Under the pieces are notes generated by a model. It made no database searches and was not told where the DNA came from. It saw only the letters and a program-made list of their open reading frames with translations. Source: an uncultured Nitrososphaerales archaeon (lineage in GTDB: Archaea; Thermoproteota; Nitrososphaeria; Nitrososphaerales; Nitrososphaeraceae). Taken from it: a DNA stretch of 64,000 nt. The stretch covers positions 1,056,001 to 1,120,000 of the forward strand of contig CAVOHZ010000010.1 of assembly GCA_963695855.1 (NCBI GenBank), in the 5' to 3' direction. Made by a program: the position numbers and the translations under genes. Positions 57,093-59,386 of this stretch are shown in pieces (within the stretch, counting starts at the first letter, position 1; every line of letters begins with the position of its first letter).

Positions 57093-57494
57093 ATGAAAAG
57101 AAAAAATCTTCTGTTTGTATCAATAATTTCCCTATCCATATTAGTATTAGGAACAATTAATATTTCTGAATCTTACTCGGATGTAAGGCTTATTTCTACA
57201 GATAATGAAGGGGAAGGAGAAGATGATCAGGACATTTTTAGCTCCCTTAGTAGAATGTTAGGTGAAAAAGATAGCGGTGGAGATTCTGGAAAAGATTCCA
57301 GTTCAGAAGAGAAAGATAGCGGTGGAGATTCTGGAAAAGATTCCAGTTCAGAAGAGAAAGATAGCGGTGGAGATTCTGGAAAAGATTCCAGTTCAGAAGA
57401 GAAAGATAGCGGTGGAGATTCTGGAAAAGATTCCAGTTCAGAAGAGAAAGATAGCGGTGGAGATTCTGGAAATGAAGGTAAAGGAACAGAGTAA
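57093..57494 (+). CDS. Secreted acidic low-complexity repeat protein
   Basis: Signal peptide followed by (EKDSGGDSGKDSSSE)x4 plus a partial copy. Confidence 0.75.
   Translation: MKRKNLLFVSIISLSILVLGTINISESYSDVRLISTDNEGEGEDDQDIFSSLSRMLGEKDSGGDSGKDSSSEEKDSGGDSGKDSSSEEKDSGGDSGKDSSSEEKDSGGDSGKDSSSEEKDSGGDSGNEGKGTE
57264..57472. repeat. 45-bp near-perfect tandem repeat
   Basis: GAGAAAGATAGCGGTGGAGATTCTGGAAAAGATTCCAGTTCAGAA units. Confidence 0.92.
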
Positions 57495-57606: not shown

Positions 57607-58602
57607 ATGGGCAAAAGCAAAATCAAAGGCAATCTGAGCAAGAATAATACTTTAAGATTTGCATTAATTTCCTCTATTACTGTTGTTATTTATCTTATTT
57701 CTCTATCTATCTCCAATTCGTACTCAGAAGATATTGTCTCAATATCTGAGAGAAACATTTTCAAGGATTCAAATGATAAGTTGAATTTAGTAGGGACCTT
57801 AACAAATATCGGCAAAACTCCATTAGAGGTAACTATAGGTGTAGATGTAAAGAAGCCTTTCCAAAATGAGCCAGAGGTACTGAATAGCAAAACGTTTGCT
57901 AGTGTGCTCTATCCACATAGGGAAGTACCTTTTAAATTTACTATAGAAAATGGAGAGTCGTTTGAAGGATCCGTTTTTGTTGTAGAAACAAAAGAAGTGA
58001 ATATGCCATTATTTGCCACTCTAAAACATGAATATTCAAACATTGCTATGGGAGATGAAAAAGCATTGATAGGAACCATAAAAAATATTGGGTCATCCAT
58101 TATCAATGATGTTGCGGTATATGCATCTGTTCATTCCAAAGATGGTACGCAATTAGATTCTGTAAAAAGTGCAGTAATTCCTATTCTGTATCCAGGAGAA
58201 GAAAAACCTTATAAAATTATTCCTGAACCTACTACAAGATCTTTAGCTTACTACTATAGCTGTGCTGGTCTTGATATAAACAGTCCTAAAACAACTTTAG
58301 ACATAGGAGGAGGAGAATTGCTTCCCTTTGATTTTGAAAGCGCATCTCTTGTGAGCAATTTTATCTATGACAAGTCCTCTGACAGTATTATGTTTACAAT
58401 CAAACCATATAACCCAGAAGGTGGAGATCTAATATTCAAAATTCCACAAAGTAACACCAATCAGAAGATAAATATCAGTATTGATGGAAAGCTGCATAAA
58501 GAAGCAACGATTACAACCGACGACAAAACAATTACAATGAAAGTATCAATACCAGCCGATGAGCATAATGTCATTATTTCAGGAGCTAGAAATGGAGTAT
58601 AA
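57607..58602 (+). CDS. Secreted protein with FxLYD-like Ig domains
   Basis: N-terminal TM; LVGTLTNIG...PFKF and IGTIKNIG..VYASVH.KDG...PGEEKPY repeats. Confidence 0.7.
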   Translation: MGKSKIKGNLSKNNTLRFALISSITVVIYLISLSISNSYSEDIVSISERNIFKDSNDKLNLVGTLTNIGKTPLEVTIGVDVKKPFQNEPEVLNSKTFASVLYPHREVPFKFTIENGESFEGSVFVVETKEVNMPLFATLKHEYSNIAMGDEKALIGTIKNIGSSIINDVAVYASVHSKDGTQLDSVKSAVIPILYPGEEKPYKIIPEPTTRSLAYYYSCAGLDINSPKTTLDIGGGELLPFDFESASLVSNFIYDKSSDSIMFTIKPYNPEGGDLIFKIPQSNTNQKINISIDGKLHKEATITTDDKTITMKVSIPADEHNVIISGARNGV

Positions 58603-58900
58603 CAACATATCATCTGTTCCTGTGTGGAAAAGAGAATTTATATAAAATAAATTGTGATAAATTAACCAAGCTCATTCAATTTATCCTCAAATTGATATCT
58701 ATCTACGTCGTATTACGATTCCAATCCTAGAAACATGATCAAAAAGAAATAAATAATGTAAATTTCAATTCAAATAAAAGAGTAAGATATAAAGGAACAA
58801 CAACAAGAAACATAATTATTGTTATGTACAATATTTCTATTACCTTATTACATATTTTTTGCAAATAACCTTCTTATATCCGATTTACGTATTAGAATCA

Positions 58901-59055
58901 TACAGTCAGAAACGAAAGTGGAAGAAACTGCGAATTTGACTGTAAATCACACTGGTAAGTACTGACTTGTGCAAAAGGCTTACCGGAAAAAACTGATGGG
59001 TCGCAATGGGCCAAGAACTATCTGGCCCATTGCATAATCTATGTTGTAGTCAGAA
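58901..59055 (+). ncRNA. Candidate structured non-coding RNA (three hairpins)
   Basis: Stems 58901-10/58935-44, 58952-60/58978-86, 59003-13/59023-33; G-U pairs on the + strand; TTATAT at 58874-79; no ORF. Confidence 0.55.
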
Positions 59056-59098
59056 GTTATTATTAGAATATAATATTTTAACAGTATAAAAGATAAAA

Positions 59099-59386
59099 AT
59101 GAGCAACGAGATAGTTGATCAAATGTCATTTAATCTGGTAAAAGCTATCAAGAATACCCACAGAAATCCAATAAATATAATTTTGCATGCAGTAGGATTA
59201 GTCCTATATTGTTTTGCACTATATTTGATAGCGGATGATTTAATTGGAGAAGGACAAAAAATGGTTCTTGGTATATTTTCTTTTATCACTGCAATAGGAC
59301 TATTTTTGATTGGTCACAAGATCGAAGGAAATATTAGAGCAATTACGATAATTATTTTACTAAAATACATCAAAAGTAAAATATAG
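59099..59386 (+). CDS. Small membrane protein, Mpo1/DUF962-like
   Basis: H.NPIN..LH..G and GH.IEGN histidine motifs, two TM helices. Confidence 0.7.
   Translation: MSNEIVDQMSFNLVKAIKNTHRNPINIILHAVGLVLYCFALYLIADDLIGEGQKMVLGIFSFITAIGLFLIGHKIEGNIRAITIIILLKYIKSKI

Follow-up and report, generated by a model that had tools for sequence, protein, structure and literature searches.

The window is the whole stretch of DNA that was analysed: 64,000 nucleotides (nt) of contig CAVOHZ010000010.1 (GenBank assembly GCA_963695855.1, positions 1,056,001 to 1,120,000) from an uncultured archaeon of the Nitrososphaeraceae. A locus near its end, proposed here to be transcribed from position 58900 or close to it on the + strand, is very probably (about 0.9) a conserved, genus-restricted gene for a structured small RNA (sRNA) of soil ammonia-oxidising archaea. 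The predicted RNA displays an invariant 12-nt loop, CUGACUUGUGCA, here called the seed. The function favoured (about 0.6) is trans-acting antisense control of messenger RNAs (mRNAs) that carry the 5′ tag AUGCACAAGUCAG, by occlusion of their start codon. The transcription of the RNA, the leaderless state of its targets, their pairing in vivo and the direction of regulation are inferred from sequence.

The RNA is of a known kind, the base-pairing sRNAs; the family is new, and the predicted pairing at leaderless 5′ ends is unusual. To our knowledge, no sRNA has been shown to act in this way on leaderless mRNAs, and the regulatory RNAs of ammonia-oxidising archaea are essentially uncharted. A full-text literature search, whose coverage excludes supplements and subscription journals, returned nothing on such an RNA. 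The locus provides a concrete, testable sRNA-target pair (defined 12-nt seed, defined target class) in organisms that lack genetics and most of whose mRNAs may be leaderless. Confirmation would establish a way in which a base-pairing RNA can control leaderless mRNAs. It would further hint at coordinated control of a large, variable secreted family, with possible relevance to surface or biofilm properties in soil.

A preliminary description, made from the sequence alone, had proposed an undescribed sRNA, an H/ACA-like guide or a cis-regulatory leader. The undescribed structured small RNA on the + strand is retained here; the guide and the leader are not.

The seed and its complement at gene starts

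G000 is the window's own genome; the other G-numbers designate other genomes of the same genus. The anatomy of the RNA was read from 17-sequence alignments. The seed is invariant at 12/12 positions, against a mean column identity of 64%. The motif CTGACT, singled out in the preliminary description, is part of this loop. The loop is unpaired in the centroid structure. The core of the stem that carries it (hairpin 2; 5-6 base pairs, bp) is 99-100% paired in the 17 sequences. Within this stem, U-A has been replaced by U.G and A-U by G.U, and one pair is altered on both sides.

The exact 12-mer occurs four times in G000: once in the RNA gene and at three other sites, located 0.9-1.1 Mb from it. 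At these three sites, the complement of the 12-mer lies on a start codon, always in the register (A/G)TG CAC AAG TCA G. The three open reading frames (ORFs) begin with MHKS or VHKS, followed by a hydrophobic stretch. None of the seven one-mismatch matches of the 12-mer in G000 is at a gene start. When the seed duplex energy was calculated for 14,229 candidate ORF starts, the three targets ranked 1, 5 and 6 (-23.7, -21.6 and -21.5 kcal/mol; mean -6.5, standard deviation 2.6 over all starts). The cofolding energy difference (ddG) of the targets is -18.7 to -20.2 kcal/mol, whereas 200 shuffled targets average -5.3 and do not go below -15.1. One region of G000 (contig C10, 11-110 kb) contains eight of the 15 best seed duplex scores, two exact targets included; the remaining high-scoring starts of this region look like spurious short ORFs.

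The target-sense 12-mer has 43 exact matches in the 25 genomes of the genus; the reversed control has 0. Eighteen of the matches are the RNA gene. Among the 25 others, 23 follow A (ATG) and one follows G (GTG), and the ORFs encode signal-peptide-like N-termini. These 24 sit exactly on (A/G)UG CAC AAG UCA G. The last one (G008) follows T (TTG) and is not a plausible gene start. The 12-mer is altogether absent from six genomes (G012, G016, G001, G009, G021, G018), where the RNA was not found either; completeness is 97-98% for three of these assemblies. On one contig of G005, a tagged target (C2:2113-2125; 151 amino acids, aa; start MHKSVTTALIALLL) and the RNA gene (C2:4609-4697) lie only 2.5 kb apart. 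Another sequence, ATGTATAGGTCAG, could pair with the seed through G.U. It has one site in G000 (C5:34140) and one each in no fewer than 11 further genomes of the genus, some of which lack the RNA; it probably belongs to a conserved gene, at its start or inside it.

The matched ORFs are preceded by a TATA box, CAAATATA or a close variant, at about -30 to -23 from the ATG. With the spacing common in archaea, transcription would start at or beside the A of the ATG, and the mRNAs would therefore be leaderless. The RNA would pair with nucleotides 2-13 of the mRNA.

Protein homology yielded 16 family members, in which synonymous codon choice was analysed. At codon 3, AAG is used in 12/16, and later in the same ORFs there are 16 AAG for 111 AAA (Fisher p 3.6e-7). 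Codon 4 is TCA in 16/16, compared with 79/259 later in the same ORFs (p 1.7e-8). At both codons, the preferred synonym is the one that complements the seed. The 5′ ends of the 16 members vary (ATGCACAAGTCAG; ATGCATAAGTCAG, ATGCGCAAGTCAG; ATGAAAAAATCAG; others). The codon 2 variants CAT and CGC (ATGCATAAGTCAG, ATGCGCAAGTCAG) retain seed pairing via G.U.

Many of the targets belong to a secreted family of about 220 aa, and most targets overall have 127-816 aa. In Pfam searches, four target proteins matched no family above the cut-off and gave a weak collagen-like match only. The MHKS family is strongly expanded in some genomes (up to 36, 32 and 31 matches), and many copies have internal stops. 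In five genomes (G003, G002, G013, G023, G010), 23-36 family matches were counted, with internal stops beside conserved promoters. Such an expansion calls to mind a variable family of surface proteins. Among the matched ORFs, some are short (44, 36 and 18 aa) and hydrophobic; these look like truncated copies of the family. The tag is its own module and not simply part of this family, because unrelated mature proteins carry it and distant family members do not. In G000, it heads repetitive, charged proteins of 816 and 165 aa, and elsewhere the ~220-aa family. Distant members of the family in G000, G019 and G014 lack the tag and start with MNK, MTD or MSN.

According to the proposed mechanism, a stand-alone gene with its own BRE/TATA promoter (BRE, transcription factor B recognition element) would be transcribed from near 58900 into an RNA of ~140-180 nt. 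This RNA would comprise three modules: a variable 5′ hairpin, a second hairpin displaying the seed, and a stable 3′ hairpin, covarying and followed by a U-rich tail. The seed would pair with nucleotides 2-13 of mRNAs beginning (A/G)UG CAC AAG UCA G. These would encode secreted or membrane-anchored proteins with an MHKS N-terminus followed by a hydrophobic segment. The duplex would cover the extreme 5′ end of the leaderless mRNA, including two bases of the start codon. It would block the loading of the ribosome and initiator tRNA and so repress translation; it might also alter mRNA decay.

A broader proposal is possible and rather doubtful: the RNA could be the master silencer of a fast-evolving, pseudogene-rich secreted family (up to ~36 matches per genome). 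Members of this family and unrelated secreted proteins alike would be brought under its control by the portable 13-nt tag on their leaderless mRNAs, with occlusion of the 5′-terminal start codon. If this is true, soil ammonia-oxidising archaea would possess a post-transcriptional switch that acts on the whole family and sets their cell-surface or secreted repertoire.

Structure, putative promoter and distribution of the RNA

Homologues were collected in several ways. Plain BLAST of the element against 60 related genomes returned three real homologues, all from the same genus (G019, 98% identity; G014, 95%; G017, 72%). An exact two-motif pattern was found in 3/401 genomes and was too strict, because clade B carries CGATGGG. 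Further homologues were reached via synteny with the upstream gene (331 aa), then via the 12-mer, then with a covariance model. The 331-aa protein is matched in 21/25 genomes of the genus. Clade B consists of nine more genomes with a diverged element downstream of the homologue of this protein. Clade C (G024, G022, G005, G010) consists of four further copies found at other loci via the loop 12-mer.

The covariance model of hairpins 2 and 3 detects the RNA in 17/22 genomes of the genus and in none of the 129 genomes that represent 17 other genera of the family. No copy was detected in G002, G006 and G018 (assemblies 69-87% complete). Each carrier has one locus by the model; that of G007 is split over two contig ends. 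A scan of metagenomes with the 5′ motif gave at least 81 matches; of those in the 80 loci listed, five are the RNA. In all five metagenome copies listed, recovered via the 5′ motif and not via the seed, the seed is intact. Little diversity is added, since all five resemble known clade-B copies.

Table 1. Features of the RNA locus in the window and exact seed targets in G000. Positions without prefix are those of the window; C10 is a contig of G000.
Feature	Position	Strand	Basis or remark
BRE/TATA-like promoter block AAATAACCTTCTTATATC	58863..58880	+	Position and conservation; putative promoter
TTATAT	58874-58879	+	Sequence
Predicted transcription start	58900..58903	+	Archaeal TATA-to-start spacing
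Hairpin 1, variable 5′ domain	58901..58944	+	Folds; 10-bp stem and small inner stem
Stem 1 TACAGTCAGA / TTTGACTGTA	58901-58910 / 58935-58944	+	One G.U
AGTCAG	58904-58909 and 59048-59053	+	Sequence
Hairpin 2, presents the seed loop	58952..58986	+	17-sequence pairing
Stem 2 CTGGTAAGT / GCTTACCGG	58952-58960 / 58978-58986	+	Two U.G
Seed CUGACUUGUGCA, loop of hairpin 2	58962..58973	+	12/12 bases invariant, 17 genomes
CTGACT	58962-58967	+	Sequence
Single-stranded GAUGGGU between hairpins 2 and 3	58995..59001	+	AUGGG invariant
Hairpin 3, 11-bp terminal hairpin	59003..59033	+	17-sequence covariation
Stem 3 GCAATGGGCCA / TGGCCCATTGC	59003-59013 / 59023-59033	+	Watson-Crick throughout
3′ tail	59034..59079	+	Predicted RNA end between ~59036 and TTTT 59076-59079
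Mpo1-like ORF	start 59099	same as element	44 nt downstream of element
G000 target, start MHKSVIKVVFLAAILIAG	C10:34373	+	165 aa
G000 target, start MHKSEITAVFLAAILLAG	C10:109034	-	816 aa
G000 target, start VHKSGVFTFGFLISLL	C10:239228	+	44 aa

The GC-enriched island with three hairpins reported in the preliminary description is present (GC 0.40-0.45 across 58900-59049; flanks, 0.19-0.31), and the short motifs TTATAT, AGTCAG (twice) and CTGACT lie where it had placed them (Table 1). For 58874-59065, the folding energy is -57.8 kcal/mol on the + strand (z -5.4; 0/200 shuffles equally stable) and -46.2 kcal/mol on the - strand (z -3.1; 1/200). The RNA proper (58901-59040) reaches -48.5 kcal/mol (z -6.4; 0/200). 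The preliminary description saw no resemblance to tRNA, SRP RNA or RNase P RNA. The whole window has no Rfam match at the gathering score. A permissive Rfam scan of 58700-59200 gave four matches only (E 1.8-9.7), so that no known family was recognized at either threshold, and ARAGORN found no tRNA.

Hairpin 3 is paired in 100% of cells in 17/17 sequences. Compensatory double changes affect 6/11 of its pairs. Its 5′ arm exists as GCAAUGGGCCA, ACGAUGAGCUA, ACGAUAAGCUA, ACGAGGGGCCA and ACGAAGGGUCA, each with a matching 3′ arm. The observed covariation score is reached by 0/500 shuffles, and slid controls are 30-40% paired. All non-Watson-Crick positions of the window's stems are G.U on the + strand, as had been described, and the wobbles of the covarying stems are likewise G.U or U.G on that strand only. 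The RNA is therefore read from the + strand. Non-triplet indels and the covarying stems speak against coding. Hairpin 3 is likely a 3′ stabiliser or a terminator-proximal element. In most other genomes, a run of T3-T5 lies within a few bases of it. In the window, no T-run directly follows hairpin 3 and the first TTTT is at 59076-59079, which is why the predicted 3′ end is given as a range.

The promoter block is found in 17/17 copies: AATAA(C/T), then CT(C/T)TTATA(T/G), 20-27 nt before the first conserved bases of the RNA. Its shape is that expected of an archaeal BRE/TATA promoter, and it is a putative one. Predicted starts were placed at the distance from the TATA box that is typical of archaea. 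In clades B and C, the predicted start of the RNA is the site of a 13-bp palindrome, TAGACAcTGTCTA (L048:2516-2530; also, for example, L087 and L090). It could serve as an operator through which a regulator acts on the RNA gene; in the window's clade, TAGAATCATACAGTC stands in its place.

The 5′ domain is variable. The exact 10-bp stem 1 is present only in G000, G019 and G014. Other clades have a different 5′ hairpin, in which the CUGU-containing 3′ arm is re-used with a clade-dependent 5′ partner, and RNAalifold finds only a weak 4-bp consensus helix in this domain. A switch between AGTCAG and CTGACT had been suggested. It is not conserved: only three near-identical genomes have the 3′ AGTCAG, and the other clades carry a different sequence in place of the 5′ AGTCAG.

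In the single-stranded GAUGGGU, the first G is changed to A in 1/17 and the last U to G in 1/17. Its complement (TTACCCATCG) is not enriched in the genus (39 matches, many of them the RNA gene, versus 42 for the control), and it was rejected as a second seed. Two paralogous sites of G000 (C10:11102-11130, + strand; C10:74594-74622, - strand) have ACCCATC 13 nt before ATGCRYARG, a partial seed match. This order would let both RNA motifs pair together. The context of these sites is coding-like, without a TATA box, and chance is probable. GAUGGG and its surroundings are similar to the 5′ arm of hairpin 3 in every clade (UGAUGGG/CAAUGGG; CGAUGGG/CGAUGAG). This segment could alternatively pair with the 3′ arm, over 6-7 bp per clade.

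As for the neighbouring genes, the Mpo1-like gene announced ~45 nt downstream was found (Table 1), with a match to Pfam PF06127 under the cut-off (E 9.8e-5; 22.8 bits for a cut-off of 24). In G017, the gene order is preserved: gene of a 324-aa secreted protein, element, Mpo1-like gene, cysteine-rich ORF of 77 aa. In syntenic clade-B genomes, the next gene is a cysteine-rich ORF of 77-79 aa, more than 200 nt away. Further upstream in the window (57093-57494, + strand), an ORF of 133 aa has a signal-like N-terminus and about four tandem units of 15 residues (EKDSGGDSGKDSSSE); it lies within a strongly GC-skewed stretch (0.5).

Objections and alternative explanations

Several observations weigh against antisense control. 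Some concern the targets. Their leaderless state is deduced solely from TATA spacing. Eight carriers of the RNA have no exact target 12-mer (G019, G014, G017, G020, G011, G022, G007, G008). Near-exact forms (ATGCGCAAGTCAG, ATGCATAAGTCAG, ATGCACAAGTTAG) are found in some of them. A wobble-tolerant target pattern (ATGYRYRRGTYRG) is not enriched (95 matches versus 91 for the control) and therefore adds nothing beyond these near-exact forms. Conversely, G002 and G006 carry targets and the RNA was not detected in their assemblies, which are 69-73% complete. The target counts are not independent, because the paralogues also share a conserved promoter. Common descent, recent duplication or gene conversion could partly account for the codon bias; this bias could also be, in part, a requirement of leaderless initiation itself.

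Other objections concern the RNA. The invariant GAUGGG(U) has no place in the antisense model. Each of 24 sequencing runs covers a small share of the stretch, and four metatranscriptome runs from four studies were examined. Each gave one contig of low depth (2-5): 58600-58798, 58736-58997, 58910-59162 and 59238-59386. No defined ends, joints or pile-ups were found in the contigs from these runs. The contig ends do not match the predicted ends of the RNA, and one contig begins 165 nt upstream of the predicted start. These contigs could be read-through or DNA carry-over.

Some of these points would be explained by a structured sRNA with another job, as a component of a ribonucleoprotein or as a guide. 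The loop and GAUGGGU would then contact protein or ribosomal RNA (rRNA), and the MHKS match would be incidental. This alternative is improbable, and it is the one that fares best. It would accommodate the existence of two invariant single-stranded motifs with predicted targets for one only, as well as the carriers without exact target. The CUGA of the loop and, in clade B, an upstream AUGAUGU/GUGAUGU are superficially similar to D and C boxes; the C-box-like motif is missing from clades A and C. No conserved ACA box, internal pocket or kink-turn (K-turn) was found in the RNA, and Rfam gave no snoRNA (small nucleolar RNA) or H/ACA match. An incidental match is also difficult to reconcile with the placement of 24/25 non-self 12-mers in one register on the start codons of one ORF class, for a control of 0.

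It is less probable still that the 12-mer is a DNA-level operator or a downstream promoter element, the structure of the RNA being secondary. The fixed location of the motif at +2 to +13 beside conserved promoters is what such an element would show, and the palindrome of clades B and C, which coincides with the predicted RNA start, is operator-like. In the RNA locus, however, the motif is inverted and located ~60 nt downstream of the start. Pairing of the stem that frames it is preserved where U-A has become U.G and A-U has become G.U, substitutions that are permissible only in a + strand RNA. The architecture with a 3′ hairpin and its six compensatory pairs would be left unexplained by a pure DNA site.

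A cis-acting leader, as contemplated in the preliminary description, or a riboswitch, either of which would control the Mpo1-like membrane protein gene by termination and anti-termination, is very unlikely. In its favour, the element lies just upstream of this gene on the same strand, GAUGGG could take over the role of the 5′ arm in hairpin 3 (6-7 bp, all clades) and one metatranscriptome contig runs across 58910-59162. The leader is disfavoured because the Mpo1-like gene is downstream of the element in 4/17 carriers only and has its own TATA-like box. In clade B another gene follows, in the four genomes of clade C the locus is a different one, and in G017 the gap to the Mpo1-like gene is ~300 nt. 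No Rfam riboswitch was matched, and the most conserved part of the element is a loop with targets in trans. The TATA-like box of the window (AATATAAT, 59067-59074) is located 25-32 nt before the ATG of the Mpo1-like gene, which is probably leaderless and transcribed apart from the RNA.

There is little to recommend an antitoxin RNA of a type I toxin-antitoxin-like system that would repress small hydrophobic peptides. The short hydrophobic ORFs among the matches, the proximity of target and RNA gene in G005 and the pairing over the start codon, reportedly a feature of several type I systems, are in line with it. Most targets are nevertheless secreted proteins of 127-816 aa, the short ones look like truncated ~220-aa copies, and in G000 the targets are 0.9-1.1 Mb away from the RNA gene and form no fixed gene pair with it.

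A chance GC-rich palindromic island or mobile-element end without functional RNA, compatible with the lack of direct evidence of expression, is just as implausible given the promoter and the compensatory changes kept across 17 genomes at 64% mean identity, the lack of terminal repeats and of a nearby transposase, and the single copy in the 3.55-Mb genome of the window and single locus per carrier, which also led to the rejection of a miniature inverted-repeat transposable element (MITE) or repeat end, the multicopy case considered in the preliminary description.

Relation to known RNA systems

Archaeal H/ACA and C/D guides share some general features with the RNA: its size is in the range of multi-hairpin H/ACA RNAs, the island is GC-rich in an AT-rich genome, and CUGA is present. 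The boxes, pocket and K-turn by which these guides are defined are either missing from the RNA or not conserved in it. For H/ACA, the trinucleotide that follows hairpin 1 is ACA in clade A and some of clade B, and ACG in G020, G011, G013, G003 and G023. No ACA follows hairpin 2 or 3, and these hairpins are continuous stems with simple apical loops and no pocket. No conserved tandem G.A motif (K-turn or K-loop) was seen by eye in the 17-sequence alignment. The H/ACA-like guide of the preliminary description was abandoned on these grounds. For C/D, the C-like AUGAUGU is internal and specific to clade B, the conserved CUGA is inside the seed loop, and the RNA has ~140 nt versus the 50-70 nt or so expected. 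The sole snoRNA match is SNORD14, on the opposite strand (E 1.9; 16.5 bits versus a gathering score of 64). The conserved antisense element has its matches at the 5′ ends of mRNAs, in a comparison that leaves aside rRNA and tRNA genes.

A base-pairing sRNA is expected to have a conserved, accessible seed against mRNAs encoded elsewhere, and such a seed was found. Among bacterial RNAs, the hairpins of Staphylococcus aureus RNAIII and the loop-loop pairing of OxyS with fhlA are said to be hairpin-loop seeds directed against start regions. The RNA described here similarly has an apical-loop seed on a conserved stem, a stable terminal hairpin followed by U residues, and several predicted targets. 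It differs in its archaeal promoter, in having no known Hfq-type partner and in its seed, a 12-nt perfect-match loop instead of C-rich or UCCC motifs.

Among archaeal RNAs, sRNA162, sRNA154 and sRNA41 of Methanosarcina mazei are reportedly trans-encoded base-pairing sRNAs that mask translation-initiation regions. The shared features are an independent small gene for a structured RNA, a short, conserved single-stranded seed against the start regions of several mRNAs encoded elsewhere, and a predicted effect on translation and/or stability. There is no relation in sequence or in Rfam, and the Nitrososphaeraceae belong to another phylum. Pairing is predicted at the very 5′ end of mRNAs that appear to be leaderless, and not at a Shine-Dalgarno region. 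Unlike those of the M. mazei sRNAs, the targets predicted here from sequence share a 13-nt 5′ tag across a multigene family.

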